This document shows positions 4,882 to 61,757 of a stretch of DNA of 64,000 nucleotides, one piece after another (position 1 is the first letter of the stretch; every line of letters starts with the position of its first letter). Source of the stretch: Candidatus Methylomirabilota bacterium (GTDB lineage Bacteria > Methylomirabilota > Methylomirabilia > Rokubacteriales > CSP1-6); assembly GCA_036002485.1 (NCBI GenBank), contig DASYTI010000019.1:11990-75989 (forward strand). The letters are read 5' to 3'. The notes below the pieces were generated by a model, which saw only the letters and a program-made list of their open reading frames with translations, was not told the origin of the DNA and searched no databases. A program made the translations under genes and the position numbers.

Positions 4882-4957
4882 CGCTCCTTGCCACGCCTCG
4901 CGGCGCTCTTGACCTGCCCCCGTTCGAGCGCCGACTCTGCCGGCGCAATCCGCTCTT

Positions 4958-4998
4958 GGGGGGAGGCTTCGGAAGGGGGGCAAAGCCCCCCTCCGAGT
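4958..4998. repeat. GC-rich palindromic hairpin repeat (REP-like), copy 1
   Basis: tggggggaggcttcggaaggggggcaaagcccccctccgagtt. Directly abuts the stop codon of the minus-strand SBP gene. Near-identical copy at 62019..62060. Confidence 0.7.
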
Positions 4999-6357
4999 TT
5001 AAACTTCATAGATTTTCTTCAGCTCGCCTTCCGCCCACTTCACGGCATCCTCGGCCTTCGTGCCCTGACAGGCCTTCGCGTACATATCGACGATGATGTA
5101 CTTCGTGTAGGACTCCGTGGCCTTGGCCGAGGCGGGGCCGGGATAACCCAGCATCCGGGTCTGGCGCGCCGCCTGGCGGAAGACCTGCAGGGGCTTGTCG
5201 ACCCGGCTCCACATCGGATCATCCTCCCAGGCCTTGGTGGCGCCGACGGTATAGCCCTCGTTCACCTGGAACCACTTCCCGTAGTTCTCCTTCTGGTGCA
5301 TCCACTTGAGGAGTTCCTTGGCCGCCTTCTGGTTCTTCGAGTATTTCATGATCGAGTGCTGGAAGGCGCCGTACAGCGCGAATTGCCCGCCCGGCCCCTT
5401 GGGAAGCAGCGCCTCGTGCTCGATGTCCTGGTACAGGGGCTCGCCCTTCTCGTCCTTGAGCTTGTCCTTCTGCCGCTTGGCCACGATGTAGATGGAGGCG
5501 CCGTTGAGGGTGGCGGAGATGTCGCCGGAGTGGAAGGCGCGGTTGTTGTTCGTGTCGTCCCAGGCCAGCCCGCCTTCGTCGCAGGCGTCCTTCCAGAAGG
5601 CCTGCATGAACTTCACCGACTCGATGGCGCCCTTGCTGTTGATGACGACCTTCTTGCCGGTCTTGTCCACCTCGGCGCCCCCGAAATCCCAGAGGAGGGG
5701 ATAGGCGAAGGTCGGCGGATCGCCGAAGCTGTGGCCGAGGGCCTGGCCCACCGGCTTGCCCTTGGCCTTGAGCTTCTTGCCCACCTCGCGCCACTCGTCC
5801 CAGGTCTTCGGGAACTCCTTGACGCCGATCTCGGCGTGCCAGGACCGGCGGTAGGCGATGGCGTTGCCACCTGTGCCGTGCGGAACGGCCAGCCAGCGAT
5901 TGCCGACCTTCGCGGTGCTGGAGAACACATCGTAGTAGCCGCCCTGCGCCTTGCCGATGGGCTCGGCCACGTCCGAGACGTCCACCAGGCCGTTGGCATA
6001 GAGATGCGGCCAGTTCCAGAGCATCTGGATGATGTCGGCGCCGCTGCCGGACTGGATGGCGGCGGTGATGCGGGCCTGCAGATCATTGGCATTGATGAAC
6101 TCGAACGTGACCTCGGCCCCGAGCGCTTTCGAGGCCTCCGGCGCCTGGCGCTTGAGCTCCACGTCCGCCTCGGGAATGAAGTCCACCCAGCGCAGGATGT
6201 GCACCTTCGTGCCCTGGGCGAAGGCCGGCGCGCGCCGCGCGGCCAGAATGCCCTCGAGCCCCGCGGCTGCGAGGCCCGCCGCGGCGGACCCCGCGATGAA
6301 CCGTCGACGCGTCACGCCGGGAATTGCCGTCTGCCCATCGAGCCCTGGAGTCGTCAT
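4999..6357 (-). CDS. ABC transporter extracellular solute-binding protein, tandem paralog of 3526..4881, Tat signal
   Basis: 452 aa, roughly 65-70% identical to the downstream SBP along its full length (VTRRRFIAGSAAAGLAAAG..., FMQAFWKDACDEGG..., DMYAKACQGTKAEDAVKWA). Confidence 0.85.
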   Translation of the reverse strand: MTTPGLDGQTAIPGVTRRRFIAGSAAAGLAAAGLEGILAARRAPAFAQGTKVHILRWVDFIPEADVELKRQAPEASKALGAEVTFEFINANDLQARITAAIQSGSGADIIQMLWNWPHLYANGLVDVSDVAEPIGKAQGGYYDVFSSTAKVGNRWLAVPHGTGGNAIAYRRSWHAEIGVKEFPKTWDEWREVGKKLKAKGKPVGQALGHSFGDPPTFAYPLLWDFGGAEVDKTGKKVVINSKGAIESVKFMQAFWKDACDEGGLAWDDTNNNRAFHSGDISATLNGASIYIVAKRQKDKLKDEKGEPLYQDIEHEALLPKGPGGQFALYGAFQHSIMKYSKNQKAAKELLKWMHQKENYGKWFQVNEGYTVGATKAWEDDPMWSRVDKPLQVFRQAARQTRMLGYPGPASAKATESYTKYIIVDMYAKACQGTKAEDAVKWAEGELKKIYEV

Positions 6358-16875: not shown

Positions 16876-16895
16876 GCTGAAGACCGCCCCCTCAT

Positions 16896-16945
16896 GATCT
16901 CAGCCCTCGCCTCATTCGAGGCGAGCCTCGGCTCGAAGTGCGGCC
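16896..16945 (-). repeat. Single copy of the same ~45-bp repeat family (inverted orientation)
   Basis: ctcagccctcgcctcattcgaggcgagcctcggctcgaa is the reverse complement of TTCGAGCCGAGG..GAGGCGAGGGCTGAG. Confidence 0.6.
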
Positions 16946-17001
16946 CTCTCCCCCGATTGTGGAGAGGATTTCTTGACTCCCTCTCCTCTCTGGGGAGAGG
17001 G
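16944..17001 (+). promoter_or_regulatory. Two stem-loops between livK and livHM; the first has a T-tract (partial terminator or attenuator candidate)
   Basis: The first stem-loop is ccctctc-ccccgattgt-ggagagg followed by atttctt. The second is ccctctcc-tctctgg-ggagaggg, directly before the RBS and GTG at 17023. Confidence 0.4.
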
Positions 17002-17022
17002 GCGGGGTGAGGGGAGCCGCCC

Positions 17023-19640: not shown

Positions 19641-20330
19641 GTGCTGACGCTTGACGGCGTCGAGGCGGCCTACGGACCTTCACGCGTGCTTCACGGCGTC
19701 TCTCTCGAGGCGCGCGAGGGCGAGGTGGTGTCGCTCCTCGGACGCAATGGCGCCGGCAAGTCCACCACGCTCAAGGCCACCATGGGCTTGGTGGATGTCA
19801 TCGGCGGCTCGGTGCGTCTCGACGGCCGAGAACTGAGGGGATTGCCGACCCACGAGATCGCCAGATTGGGTGTGGGCTGGGTGCCGGAAGACCGGCGCAT
19901 CTTCAGCGATCTCAGCGTGGAAGAGAATCTCCTGGTCGGGGCCCGGAGCGCGGGAGGGCAGAGCGTCGATCGCGTCTATGAGCAATTCCCCGCCCTCGGA
20001 CGGATGGCGGCGCGGCGAGGGGGAAGCCTCTCGGGCGGAGAGCAGCAGATGCTCACCGTCGCGCGCACCCTCATGGGCCATCCGCGCATCCTCCTCCTCG
20101 ACGAGCCGTCGGAGGGGCTGGCCCCCGTCATCGTCCAGGCCCTCGGCCAGCAGATCGCCGCGCTCAAGCGGGAGGGCTTGACCATCGTGCTCTCCGAGCA
20201 GAATCTCAAGTTCGCGGCCCGGCTGGCCGATCGGGCCTACATCATCGAGAAGGGCCAGATCCGGTGGGAAGGGCCCATGGCGCGGTTGATGGAAGACGAA
20301 GTCGTCCGCCGCGCGTACCTCACCGTTTAG
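19641..20330 (+). CDS. livF: LivF-type ABC transporter ATP-binding protein
   Basis: Walker A GRNGAGKST, signature LSGGEQQML, Walker B LLLDEPSEGL. GTG start. Confidence 0.88.
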   Translation: MLTLDGVEAAYGPSRVLHGVSLEAREGEVVSLLGRNGAGKSTTLKATMGLVDVIGGSVRLDGRELRGLPTHEIARLGVGWVPEDRRIFSDLSVEENLLVGARSAGGQSVDRVYEQFPALGRMAARRGGSLSGGEQQMLTVARTLMGHPRILLLDEPSEGLAPVIVQALGQQIAALKREGLTIVLSEQNLKFAARLADRAYIIEKGQIRWEGPMARLMEDEVVRRAYLTV

Positions 20331-20339
20331 GGAGCTCGC

Positions 20340-21515
20340 ATGAAGACGCTGATCAAGAATATCGGCGTGATCGTCTCCGGCGACATCGCGCGCCCGCTCC
20401 TCGAGGGCGACAGCATCGCCATCGCCGACGGCCGGATCGCCGCCGTGGGGAAGGGGCTCGAAGATCAGGCCGACACCGTCATCGACGCCAAGGGCAGCGC
20501 GGTGATCCCCGGGCTCATCGATTCGCACTGTCACCCCGTCTTCGGCGACTTCACCCCGCGTCAGCGAACCATGGACTTCATCGAGTCCGGGCTCAACGGC
20601 GGAATCACCACCATGATCTCGGCCGGCGAGGTGCATCTCCCGGGGCGACCCAAGGACATCGTGGGCCTCAAGGCCCTCGCCGTGGTGGCCGCCAAGGCCT
20701 ACGCCAATCTTCGGCCGGCCGGGGTCAAGGTCCACGGCGGGGCGCCCATTCTCGAGCTCGGCCTGGTCGAGGCGGACTTCGCCGAGATGGCCAAGCACGG
20801 CGTCAAGCTGGTCGGCGAGATCGGCCTCGGCTCGGTCAAGACCGGCAAGGACGCGGCGCCCATGGTCCGCTGGGCCAAGAAGCACGGCATGACCGTGACC
20901 ATTCACACGGGGGGGCCGTCCATCGCGGGCTCGAACCCCATCAGCGCCGAGGTCGTGCTCGAGGCGGATCCTCACGTCGTCGGTCATATCAATGGCGGCA
21001 CGACCTCCATGAGCGAGCGCGAGATCGACTCGCTGGTGGCGACAAACATGGCGCTTGAGATCGTCCACTGTGGCAATGGCAAGACGGCGCTGCACACGCT
21101 GGAGCGGGCCACCGAGGCCAAGGCGCTTCACCGCATCATCATCGGCAATGACGCCCCGTCGGGAACGGGCGTGGTGCCCCTGGGCATCGTCCGCGTGATC
21201 GCACATCTCGTCTCGCTGGGCGGGGTGAGCGCGGAGATCGCGATCTGCATGGCCACCGGGAATACGGCGCGCGTCTACAATCTGCCCGTCGGGGTCATCG
21301 CCACCGGCCGCGAGGCGGATCTCTGCATCGTGGACGCGCCCGTGGGATCGGTGGGCAAGACGGCCCTCGAGGCGCTCAAAGCCGGCGACCTCTTCGGCAT
21401 CTCGATGGCCCTCATCGACGGACAGATCAGGATAGGGCGCAGCCGTAATACGCCGCCGGCCGCCCGCGCCGCCGAGGTGATCAAAGGGCACGGCCCCTCG
21501 GGAGGAGGACACTAG
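20340..21515 (+). CDS. Enamidase-like amidohydrolase (metal-dependent amidohydrolase superfamily)
   Basis: The N-terminus MKTLIKNIGVIVSGDIARP...IAAVG and the C-terminal block CMATGNTARVYNL...GREADLCIVDAPVGSV closely recall enamidase (6-oxo-tetrahydronicotinate amidohydrolase) family proteins. Confidence 0.75.
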   Translation: MKTLIKNIGVIVSGDIARPLLEGDSIAIADGRIAAVGKGLEDQADTVIDAKGSAVIPGLIDSHCHPVFGDFTPRQRTMDFIESGLNGGITTMISAGEVHLPGRPKDIVGLKALAVVAAKAYANLRPAGVKVHGGAPILELGLVEADFAEMAKHGVKLVGEIGLGSVKTGKDAAPMVRWAKKHGMTVTIHTGGPSIAGSNPISAEVVLEADPHVVGHINGGTTSMSEREIDSLVATNMALEIVHCGNGKTALHTLERATEAKALHRIIIGNDAPSGTGVVPLGIVRVIAHLVSLGGVSAEIAICMATGNTARVYNLPVGVIATGREADLCIVDAPVGSVGKTALEALKAGDLFGISMALIDGQIRIGRSRNTPPAARAAEVIKGHGPSGGGH

Positions 21516-21516
21516 A

Positions 21517-21726
21517 CTTTCGAGCTGAGCCGCTGCCCCGCATTTCGAGTTGAGCGGTGGCCGATGGCCGCCGCGAGACGAGAGCTGAGTTGATTCGAGG
21601 TGAGTGGCGGCCAGCGGCCATCGCGAGACGAGGGCTGAGTGGAGCGCGCAGGCCGCAGTTCGAGCTGAAGGGCGAAGCCCTGAGGCGAGGGCTGAGTGGA
21701 TCAGCGGCGAGGCGAGTGCTGAGACA
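21517..21726 (+). repeat. Tandem array (about 3.5 units) of a ~45-50 bp intergenic repeat, consensus TTCGAG(C/T)TGAG...GCGAG(A/G)CGAGGGCTGAGTGG
   Basis: Units at roughly 21541-21591, 21592-21641, 21642-21698, and a partial unit at 21699-21722. Lies between the amidohydrolase stop and the PF06684 gene start. Confidence 0.75.
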
Positions 21727-21738
21727 AGGAGAAAGATT

Positions 21739-22308
21739 ATGCATATCCGGAAGCTGCTGACCGTGGTGGAGGAGATCTACGAGGACGGCGGGAAGAAGGC
21801 GGCCAGGCCCATCAAGAAGGTCGCGGCCATCGCGGTGATCGAGAACCCCTTCGCCGGACGCTTCGTGGAGGACCTGCAGGAGCTCGTCAAGACCGGCGAG
21901 GAGCTGGGCGATCTCCTCGGCCGCCGGGCCGTGGCCGCCCTCGGCGCGCCCGCCCATTCCTACGGCAAGGCCGCCATCGTCGGCGAGCAGGGCGAATACG
22001 AGCACGCCGCCGCCATCCTTCACCCTACCCTGGGCGCTCCCTTTCGCGCAGCGGTGGGCGGGGGCCAGGCCATCATCCCGTCGACGAAGAAACTTGGCGG
22101 GCCCGGCGCGACCATCGACGTGCCGCTGCACTACAAGGACGCGGCCTTCGTCCGGACTCATTTCGACGCGATGGAGGTGCGCCTGGGGGACGCTCCGCGC
22201 GCCAACGAGATTCTCGTCGCCCTCGTCGTCACGGATGGAGGCCGGCCTCACCCTCGCGTGGGAGGCCTGACCGTCGACGAGGCCAAGAAAGAGGACGGGT
22301 TGAGATGA
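21739..22308 (+). CDS. PF06684 (amino-acid-synthesis / DUF1185) family protein
   Basis: MHIRKLLTVVEEIYEDGGKKAARPIKKVAAIAVIENPFAG. GGAG RBS. The in-frame upstream part of the track ORF is a tandem repeat array, not protein. Confidence 0.65.
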   Translation: MHIRKLLTVVEEIYEDGGKKAARPIKKVAAIAVIENPFAGRFVEDLQELVKTGEELGDLLGRRAVAALGAPAHSYGKAAIVGEQGEYEHAAAILHPTLGAPFRAAVGGGQAIIPSTKKLGGPGATIDVPLHYKDAAFVRTHFDAMEVRLGDAPRANEILVALVVTDGGRPHPRVGGLTVDEAKKEDGLR

Positions 22309-32712: not shown

Positions 32713-32739
32713 ATTTCCCGCAGGCGGCTCCAAAAGGTC

Positions 32740-32830
32740 CAGATGCGAGGCGGCGCCCGAAGGTCGCACGCGAGGCGTAGTTCTCACTCAGCCCTCGCCT
32801 CGCGGCTGCGTCCCTCAGCTCGAACGGCCA
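32740..32830 (-). repeat. Copy of the ~45-bp repeat family (inverted orientation) between convergent genes
   Basis: The reverse complement of 32784-32829 is GGCCGTTCGAGCTGAGGGACGCAGCCGCGAGGCGAGGGCTGAGTGAG, nearly identical to unit 3 of the tandem array. Confidence 0.65.
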
Positions 32831-32891
32831 TGTACGTTGAGCGTGCGACCGAGTGCGCCAACGAAGCAGATGGGCCTTTTTCAGCCGCCGC

Positions 32892-61503: not shown

Positions 61504-61575
61504 ATGAAGAAGAAAGCCAAGAAGAAGAGCGCAAAGAAGCGCAAGAAGGCGACGAAGAAGGGGCGGCGGCGGTAG
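61504..61575 (+). CDS. Micro-ORF encoding a 23-aa polybasic peptide MKKKAKKKSAKKRKKATKKGRRR
   Basis: GGGAAGGGAGGTGA Shine-Dalgarno sequence 7 nt upstream of the ATG. Immediately follows the hypothetical gene. Confidence 0.4.
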   Translation: MKKKAKKKSAKKRKKATKKGRRR

Positions 61576-61589
61576 CCGACGTCGAGCGT

Positions 61590-61690
61590 TCGAGTCGAGA
61601 CGGTGCCCGATGTTCGAGTTGAGCGGCGAAGCCGCGAGACGAGGGCTGGGTTGATCCCGCAGGCGTGGCAGTTCGGCTGAGTTGACGAAC
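61590..61690 (+). repeat. Copy (about 1.5 units) of the ~45-bp repeat family between the two micro-ORFs
   Basis: tgttcgagttgagcggcgaagccgcgagacgagggctgggttga matches unit 1 of the array at 21541. Confidence 0.65.
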
Positions 61691-61715: not shown

Positions 61716-61757
61716 ATGGCGAAGAAGAAGAAGGCGGCCAAGAAGAAGAAGAAGTAG
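61716..61757 (+). CDS. Micro-ORF encoding a 13-aa polybasic peptide MAKKKKAAKKKKK
   Basis: GGGGGTGA Shine-Dalgarno sequence 7 nt upstream. Paralogous in architecture to 61504..61575. Confidence 0.3.
   Translation: MAKKKKAAKKKKK

Follow-up and report, generated by a model that had tools for sequence, protein, structure and literature searches.

BOX elements of pneumococcus and Streptococcus suis are organized as boxA-boxB(n)-boxC; boxB folds alone, occurs in variable number and is combined with more than one kind of flanking module, and BOX elements are inserted into one another and differ in copy number between strains (PMC3049150). The content in repetitive extragenic palindromic (REP) sequences also differs between close relatives, and inverted REP doublets forming a hairpin, known as REPINs, act as the replicative unit (PMC3337134). 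REP-associated tyrosine transposases (RAYTs) have been sorted by one survey into at least five groups, found in 24% of the species with a complete genome (PMC5581495). A repeat comparable to these elements, here called the unit, is found in a 64,000-nt stretch of contig DASYTI010000019.1 from a Candidatus Methylomirabilota bacterium; this whole stretch is denominated the window. Four sites in the window host the unit, and one of these (21517-21726) had been described in an earlier note as a tandem array.

The unit is probably a non-coding DNA module of about 50 nt, belonging to a repeat family specific to Rokubacteria and resembling REPs, bacterial interspersed mosaic elements (BIMEs) and BOX elements. 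It is multi-copy, lineage-restricted, intergenic, indifferent to orientation, modular and polymorphic between relatives. The family is previously undescribed, but its REP/BIME/BOX-like class is a familiar one. No description of it was found in the literature searched on repeated, intergenic or palindromic sequences of Rokubacteria, an uncultured phylum of soil and groundwater.

Abundance, fold and position of the unit

Units fit the layout TGGCAG-TTCGAGCTGAG-(variable hairpin)-GAGGCGAGGGCTGAG-TNGATC, and complete units of the window read TTCGAGNTGAG, a hairpin of 12 or 20 nt, GAGRCGAGRGCTGAG and TNGA(TC). The exact pattern formed by the 5' box and the 3' box was scanned against the GTDB species representatives (596 Gb) in 8-kb blocks. 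At least 120 blocks matched, while fewer than one match is expected by chance according to our own estimate. Among the matches listed, 116 blocks come from eight metagenome-assembled genome (MAG) assemblies of Candidatus Rokuibacteriota/Methylomirabilota (DASQAK 45, QHSC01 18, DASSSH 17, JACORX 16, JBKOVG 10, DATGCY 6, JBKPBU 3 and JACQCN 1 blocks). The window, which comes from a JGI soil-metagenome contig, is syntenic with one MAG contig, DASQAK010000084, at 87-92% nucleotide identity, and is therefore itself Rokubacterial. The covariance model (CM) R1 identified 115 copies in 421 kb of pattern-bearing blocks. The earlier note had proposed a non-coding dispersed family similar to REPs or to MITEs (miniature inverted-repeat transposable elements); the family is genuine, and far more abundant than the window alone shows. 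Extrapolation from this one window gives about 100 copies per Mb. A hairpin module so specific to one lineage matters for gene-start calls, assembly and binning, and could be used as a taxonomic marker.

Four stray matches are among those listed. One, from Aquiluna (L060), features no hairpin and scores 22 bits, and is thus a chance match. The other three, found in contigs labelled Chloroflexia (L073, CAVVDB010000003.1, 1.17 Mb), Opitutaceae (L082) and Actinobacteria AC_55 (L122), host units whose flanks are typical of the family; these contigs are probably Rokubacteria DNA that was wrongly binned or labelled. A blastn comparison of the array with plasmid and phage collections gave no match. 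Rfam gave 0 matches at gathering score over the whole window, and only chance-level matches (mir-9456, sX5) for the array at E up to 10.

The anatomy of the unit has been drawn from 154 exact two-box matches and the 115 CM matches. One strand folds as a long imperfect hairpin. Its helix joins the 5' box to the 3' box (T.G T.G C-G G.A A.G G-C C-G T.G G.A A.G G-C), with G.U/G.T wobbles, and the flanks add three pairs (GCAG with a CTGC-like outer stem). Within the helix, the tandem G.A motif CGAG/CGAG is present twice in symmetric position, each time in the 5'-Y-GA-R-3' context; the pairs surrounding these motifs covary, and a G-C pair closes the apical stem. This context reportedly leads to stable sheared tandem G.A pairs in RNA, and the same is said of DNA. 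The eight G and A residues of the two motifs are 97-100% conserved. The apical insert is mostly 12 nt long and is made of a 4-5-bp stem and a 3-nt loop; more generally the stem has 4 to 8 bp and the loop 3 to 4 nt. The stem covaries freely, and CGGC/GCCG, GGGC/GCCC, CCGC/GCGG and CAGC/GCTG are all found as compensatory variants. The arms are conserved in sequence, the tip in structure alone.

In the alignment collected with the CM, which is biased towards the model structure, 90.9% of the cells are paired, versus 32-53% when the partner is slid by 1-3 columns, and double changes occur at 6 of 14 pairs. Box position 7 and 3'-box position 4 are CG in 94 copies, UA in 10 and GC in 3; the neighbouring pair is UG (93) or CG (16), the closing pair GC (95) or AU (9), and a further compensatory pair GC (76) or CG (30). 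Two hairpins pointed out in the earlier note are to be read differently. AGCCCT/AGGGCT, placed in the 3' half, is peculiar to one copy; across 83 copies 60% of the cells pair at these positions, and covariation equals that of shuffled controls. GGGC-GAA-GCCC, regarded as a competing hairpin, is actually the conserved apical stem, which continues into the helix formed by the two boxes; 91-93% of the cells are paired here, versus 32-53% in slid controls.

The fold is strand-specific. Among single units the sense strand is more stable than the other in 210 of 211 cases (mean -21.0 vs -13.1 kcal/mol), and the entire array folds at -111.6 kcal/mol (z -5.3) in sense versus -79.2 kcal/mol (z -1.7) on the other strand. 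The complementary strand has A.C and C.U in place of G.U and G.A. Invariant arms carrying two G.A motifs, joined to a covarying tip, make the unit an unusually clean natural element for recognition of structure plus sequence, and the twin G.A hairpin gives a concrete handle for finding its reader protein.

The location of 211 units, identified by fuzzy matching in the collected loci, was compared with gene calls based on GC content at third codon positions, by which 78% of the DNA is coding. Only two of the 211 units are intragenic. Co-directional gaps host 49 units in sense and 42 in antisense orientation, or 35 versus 26 when counted per region (p 0.31). Orientations are split 12/12 in convergent and 18/18 in divergent gaps, and the three gap types hardly differ in the number of units per kb of gap. 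Orientation bias was tested per unit, per subfamily and per intergenic region, and was significant in none of these tests. The neighbouring genes belong to unrelated housekeeping families. Unbiased orientation, presence in all gap types and unrelated neighbours do not fit the behaviour of a cis-regulatory RNA.

Nested and composite arrangements

All four sites indicated by the earlier note were found again in the window. CM R1 matches, obtained with filters off, all fall at these sites (E 1e-7 to 4e-18), and nothing else scores below E 0.1 in the whole window except a collapsed copy at 61666-61687 (+). The 3' box pattern GAGRCGAGRGCTGAGT, allowing up to 3 mismatches, is found at 16898 (-), 21575, 21625, 21682, 21709, 32786 (-) and 61636; four of the seven matches are perfect, and none lies outside the four sites. 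The 5' box TTCGAGNTGAG is found at 21519, 21544, 21594, 21659, 16927 (-), 32814 (-), 61589 and 61613; with up to 1 mismatch it has 12 matches in the window versus 4.9 expected by chance. The features are the following.

21519-21535 (+), site 2: outer unit, 5' half; 5' box TTCGAGCTGAG (21519-21529) and CCGCTG (21530-21535), the 5' strand of the outer apical stem
21538-21595 (+), site 2: inner unit 1, T-type; TTCGAGTTGAG, 20-nt hairpin CGGTGGCC-GAT-GGCCGCCG-C, GAGACGAGAGCTGAG-TTGA
21588-21645 (+), site 2: inner unit 2; 5' box TTCGAGGTGAG (21594-21604), 20-nt insert, 3' box GAGACGAGGGCTGAG (21625-21639), TGGA
21653-21702 (+), site 2: inner unit 3, C-type; 12-nt insert GGGC-GAA-GCCC-T
21702-21723 (+), site 2: outer unit, 3' half; CAGCGGC (21702-21708) and 3' box GAGGCGAGTGCTGAG (21709-21723)
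16893-16943 (-), site 1: single unit between a solute-binding protein gene and a permease gene, antisense to both
32720-32891 (-), site 3: type II palindromic composite; terminal inverted repeats (TIRs) GCAGGCGGCTCCAAAAGGTCCAGATGC (32720-32746) and GCAGATGGGCCTTTTTCAGCCGCCGC (about 32866-32891)
61589-61687 (+), site 4: degenerate nested element; solo 5' box TTCGAGTCGAG (61589-61599), T-type unit (61607-61656), collapsed unit

Site 2 fills a gap of 223 nt between an amidohydrolase gene (20340-21515) and an AA_synth (PF06684) gene starting at 21739. A solo 5' box, three complete units and a solo 3' box follow one another in the gap, and the 3' half of the outer unit is followed by ACAAGGAGAAAGATT and then by the ATG of the AA_synth gene. 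The array is in sense orientation, within an operon, and ends 15 nt upstream of the start codon. The outer CCGCTG (21530-21535) pairs with CAGCGG (21702-21707) in the RNA minimum free energy (MFE) fold. The supposed tandem array is a single outer unit whose loop contains three inner units. The earlier note had counted about 3.5 tandem copies at 21541-21722; Tandem Repeats Finder gives 1.9 copies of period 50, covering 21544-21640, and a nested element is the better reading. Inner units 1 and 2 are both exact two-box matches. Unit 1 scores 51.3 bits with CM R1 (E 8.6e-13), and the low score of unit 2 is due to its 20-nt insert alone. Inner unit 3 is the closest match to the family consensus in the window (69.5 bits, E 3.7e-18), and takes the model structure in the MFE fold of the entire array. 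Inner units 1 and 2 have 20-nt apical hairpins (within 21554-21624) that are near-complementary, both being built on GGCC-N3-GGCC; as a result, the array MFE fold pairs unit 1 with unit 2 rather than each alone. The spurious mir-9456 match has the same origin.

The unit at site 1 scores 33.7 bits (E 1.3e-7), and belongs to a subfamily flanked by GGGAGAGGG on one side and AGGGGG on the other, both being motifs that pertain to a second repeat family. Site 3 lies between convergent genes; its unit, at 32781-32830 (-), scores 64.6 bits, and the mirror slot is empty, while both slots hold units in the related composites L040 and L062. The copy had been reported by the earlier note (32784-32829) as about 90% identical to inner unit 3; a count by eye gives about 85%, as 6 of 41 positions differ. 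At site 4 the T-type unit scores 56.5 bits, and the collapsed unit, TGGCAGTT-c-GGCTGAGTTGA, scores 17.3 bits (E 0.009); the layout matches L014 6553-6700. Site 4 is bracketed by two tiny lysine-rich ORFs, MKKKAKKKSAKKRKKATKKGRRR at 61504-61575 and MAKKKKAAKKKKK at 61716-61757 (+), both found a few nt after a GGGAGG/GGGGG motif resembling a ribosome-binding site. Similar mini-ORFs were found in none of the other collected loci.

The unit is an optional cassette occupying defined slots of at least two larger palindromic backbones. Type I backbones have the ends GG(Y)ACTGGGCCAAGTTGCGAGCCAGA ... TGGCGAAGCAAATTGGCCCAGT(R)CC and discrete lengths of 113, 157, 202 and 246 nt, with 0 to 3 units. Alignment of 29 copies reveals three slots, each of which is either empty (about 5 nt of constant filler) or holds exactly one 50-nt unit; 7 of the 8 possible combinations of occupancy have been observed. 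Type II backbones end in GCAGGCCGCTCAAAAAGGTCCAGATGC ... GCAGATGGGCCTTTTTCAGCGGCCTGC, fall into length classes of 128, 175 and 225-243 nt, and hold up to two units facing each other, as inverted doublets 28-70 nt apart. Composites of both types have TIRs of 20-27 nt, while the unit itself has hairpin arms only. Type III elements are self-nested, being made of 5' box, CCGCTG, a T-type unit, a C-type unit, CAGCGGC and 3' box. This is the arrangement of site 2, it is degenerate at site 4, and it was also found at the unrelated locus L014 of another MAG. Direct tandems are found in L086 (3 copies, period 45), L103 and L010.

The second repeat family is palindromic and apparently even more widespread. 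It fits CCCTCTCC(C)-N4-7-GGGGAGAGGG, often followed by CGGGGTGAGGGG, and was found at 16946-17014 in the window, at L072 3255-3300 and, in the gap preceding AA_synth, in L131-L133, L146, L153, L164 and L194. It shares the intergenic hotspots of the unit, at times together with it, and its G-rich tail may double as a Shine-Dalgarno sequence.

Orthologous loci and rival explanations

A metagenome scan with the AA_synth protein yielded 80 loci at 85-98% protein identity, 68 of which keep both flanking genes. In many of these the amidohydrolase/AA_synth gap has zero length, and stop and start codons overlap (cacTAATGaag in L125 and L127, cacTGATG in L145, L157 and L172), which implies translational coupling in the relatives lacking repeats. 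Elsewhere the gap measures 77-78 nt and hosts one outer unit with a 34-nt insert (L124, L135), 107 nt with one nested unit in the outer frame (L130), or 164-173 nt with two nested units (L126, L129, L169). The 223 nt of the window, with three units nested in the outer one, correspond to four units in total. The outer frame is common to the window and to L124, L135, L130, L126 and L169, with 0 to 2 inner units in those loci. Other alleles contain one inverted unit embedded in the second repeat family (about 160-260 nt; L123, L176, L177, L187), or the second family only (49-212 nt; the seven loci listed above). Occupied alleles end as CTGAG-ACAAGGAGAGAGATT-ATG, while empty alleles use GGAGGAGG inside the end of the upstream gene. 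In every repeat-bearing allele the overlap is lost, and a new Shine-Dalgarno sequence (AAGGAG or GAGG) is found at or next to the repeat end.

Two more gaps differ in relatives. The 10-nt gap between the ABC ATPase and amidohydrolase genes is empty in the window (20330-20340), while a nested element of two to three units is found in L124 (1079-1225) and L169 (998-1100), where the flanking genes are 89-98% identical. The MAG locus L072, syntenic with site 1, lacks the unit and contains a CCTCTCCCC/GGGGAGAGG hairpin alone. All three gaps are thus presence/absence polymorphisms. The CM detected 21 units in 323 kb of orthologous loci, all in closer relatives.

Spreading to new sites plausibly takes place at the DNA level. 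Conserved arms, invariant mismatches and a tip that merely pairs suggest that a protein recognizes the folded single strand. A structure-specific enzyme acting in trans, such as those of the HUH/RAYT or IS200-IS605 type, is a tentative candidate; somewhat less favoured is the alternative that units ride TIR-bounded backbones as MITE passengers. Local changes in copy number are reasonably likely to result from slippage or unequal recombination between box repeats. Since each box partly repeats the other in direct orientation (CGAG-N-CTGAG), tandem, nested and collapsed forms such as 61666-61687 could naturally arise by slippage or unequal exchange. Effects on the host would be incidental: sense copies may add a cluster of stable stem-loops to the polycistronic mRNA, and the presence of the element would abolish translational coupling and provide a new Shine-Dalgarno sequence (AAGGAG) after it. 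In these genomes the family helps to account for the separation of operon genes that are otherwise tightly coupled.

Several points weigh against a DNA repeat spreading in this way. No transposase or RAYT gene adjoins the units or was found elsewhere in the 1.2 Mb of collected genome fragments, and pairs of filled and empty sites gave no convincing target-site duplication. Units may have been either gained or lost. As copies share descent, the counts of covariation do not represent independent events. Orientation statistics rely on crude gene calls, and MAG loci were chosen for containing a unit. With DNA nearest-neighbour parameters, which give mismatches no credit, single units are not unusually stable (z about -0.9), and the helix, with its many G.U and G.A pairs, resembles RNA more than DNA; accordingly, an RNA-level role for sense-oriented copies is possible.

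Two explanations compete on equal terms with each other, and both are doubtful. According to the first, units are bona fide REPs or REPINs, and a single-copy RAYT (HUH-Y1) whose gene lies in another part of the genome mobilizes them. They are extragenic, high-copy imperfect palindromes with asymmetric mismatches, their copy content varies between close relatives as for REPs (PMC3337134), and the inverted doublets of type II could form REPIN-like hairpins. Roughly one copy in two has GTGG at -8 to -5, but two subfamilies lack the GT(A/G)G head. Units are also longer than typical REPs, and direct tandem, nested and single-cassette arrangements are common. REPIN-linked RAYT groups have been described mainly in Proteobacteria, which also counts against a RAYT here. 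None of the genes lying between units resembles a RAYT, and a tblastn search of the 1.2 Mb with a reconstructed E. coli RAYT as query gave no match. When 737 proteins of unit-bearing loci were clustered all against all, the families obtained were limited to ABC-transporter, luciferase-like, SDR, amidohydrolase and TPR/cyclase proteins. Where a gene has units on either side, it encodes an ordinary enzyme, apart from one 269-aa ORF without Pfam match. The latter, L006 5102-5911 (+), lies between inverted units at 4939-4996 (+) and 5941-5978 (-), and is not HUH-like by eye.

According to the second, the mobile entities are the larger TIR-bounded composites, that is MITEs dependent on a DDE transposase, and the unit is a passenger shuffled by recombination. 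Types I and II do have TIRs of 20-27 nt and discrete sizes (113-248 nt), and are multi-copy in several MAGs; occupancy variants recur with the same empty-slot sequence, suggesting propagation of the whole element. Yet units are also found alone, in tandem and nested without those TIRs (sites 1, 2 and 4; L086, L103, L010), target-site duplications were not identified, and the elements are GC-rich rather than AT-rich. No autonomous element with matching TIRs was found either, nor any element of insertion sequence (IS) size bounded by the composite TIRs, save one uninspected pair. This pair, L048 5219-7477, is the only one of type I terminal repeats set at an IS-sized distance (2259 nt).

A bolder proposal is still less probable. 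The unit might be the recognition module of an undescribed mobile or host-recruited system of Rokubacteria, in which a dedicated protein reads the twin sheared-G.A hairpin as single-stranded DNA or RNA; it would insert as a cassette, without TIRs or target-site duplications, into hairpin loops and junctions, its own included. If so, this would be a REP-like system outside the described lineages, with a different recognition logic. It could also help to explain the long intergenic regions of Rokubacteria genomes, which are reportedly unusually large.

A cis-regulatory RNA, mentioned as an alternative in the earlier note, is disfavoured and very unlikely. A riboswitch, attenuator or protein-binding leader for the AA_synth and luciferase-like genes or for the amino-acid transport operon would fit the location of site 2, in sense within an operon and close to a start codon, and the strongly strand-specific, RNA-like fold with its G.U and tandem G.A pairs. 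However, the orthologous gap is empty or filled with other repeats in most of the 68 relatives, whose protein is 85-98% identical, and unit numbers differ in further close relatives; the empty sites largely refute the idea. In addition, units lie beside unrelated genes, in every gap type and with unbiased orientation, the site 1 unit is antisense to its operon, no Rfam family matches, and a promoter/terminator scan found no such sites. The unit is not a switch or cis-regulator of adjacent genes, and does not constitute evidence for a new regulatory mechanism.

It is hardly credible that the units code for a recurring peptide (..RAEGRSPEARAE..), whether within a protein or in small ORFs bridging operon genes, similar to those of mycobacterial interspersed repetitive units (MIRUs). 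One frame is open through units 2-3 into the AA_synth ORF (21604-22308), but orthologues with an empty gap use the same ATG, units occur in both orientations, array periods (45, 48, 50 and 65 nt) are not consistently multiples of 3, variable inserts shift the frame, and the compensatory pattern is that of nucleic-acid structure; the coding reading is effectively refuted. Finally, the chance that units are local duplication debris, with no family beyond this contig, is negligible: the earlier note had made it depend on further copies being absent from the genome and from relatives, and the exact pattern occurs in at least 120 blocks, with eight MAG assemblies among the matches listed, in addition to the 115 CM matches in 421 kb.

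Comparison with known repeat systems

Three candidates were considered and discarded. Arrays of integron attC sites are found in the same orientation between promoterless cassettes near intI. The unit consensus lacks R''/R' cores (RYYYAAC...GTTRRRY), and units are found in both orientations between ordinary operon genes. MIRUs are said to be tandem units oriented with the operon, with small ORFs overlapping the flanking genes. In the repeat described here orientations are mixed, periods are 45, 48, 50 or 65 nt, and the downstream gene keeps its own ATG and has a new Shine-Dalgarno sequence. A curated Rfam structured RNA is likewise rejected, as there is no match, orthologous sites are empty and orientation is unbiased.

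HUH transposases, as those of IS608, RAYTs and the TnpA of IS200/IS605, recognize imperfect hairpins on single-stranded DNA. The unit is similar to the subterminal hairpins of IS200/IS605 (PATE-like elements), being a strand-specific imperfect hairpin with conserved irregularities. In contrast to these, no tnpA or tnpB gene is associated with units, and no conserved cleavage tetranucleotide can be demonstrated.

Composites resemble MITEs such as Correia/NEMIS, ERIC and Nezha in size (113-248 nt), presence of TIRs, extensive base-pairing and intergenic location. They differ because GC-rich, with no target-site duplication or parent IS identified, and because the unit also spreads without TIRs. 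Units are 58-76% GC in a genome at about 67% GC. The flanks of type I ends are conserved as part of the palindrome, and two filled/empty sites showed no consistent duplication.

As in REPs, BIMEs and REPINs, units are short, extragenic, high-copy imperfect palindromes (at least 45 blocks in one MAG), with a hairpin backed by covariation and stem mismatches that give polarity. They form mosaics with other short motifs, and inverted doublets, found in type II, can form long hairpins; singletons, direct tandems and nested copies are equally common. Unlike REPs and BIMEs, the unit contains two tandem G.A motifs and often occurs in direct tandem or self-nested arrangements; its length of about 50 nt equals or exceeds that usual for REPs. 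Divergent, promoter-side gaps are not avoided, no RAYT was found in the 1.2 Mb of fragments, and the hosts are Rokubacteria/Methylomirabilota. REP palindromes reportedly have a conserved 5' GT(A/G)G head beside them. No such head is universal in the unit: copies lacking GTGG at -8 to -5 have GCCG or CCGC instead in the GGGAGAGGG-flanked and T-type subfamilies.

The likeness to BOX is an analogy of architecture only, as sequences were not compared and the hosts, Firmicutes and Rokubacteria, are unrelated. In both families conserved flanking modules enclose 0 to n copies of a module of about 45 nt that folds independently; here, 0-3 inner units are found within the outer unit at one orthologous site, and the type I backbone offers three slots. 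Use of one inner module with different flanking modules, variation in copy number and insertion of elements into one another are likewise common to both. BOX differs in that the Rokubacteria module is a conserved-arm hairpin able to nest in its own loop, and in that the palindromic backbone has three separate slots rather than one central array. The pneumococcal BOX is the closest analogue in architecture, and REPs, BIMEs and REPINs the closest in lifestyle.

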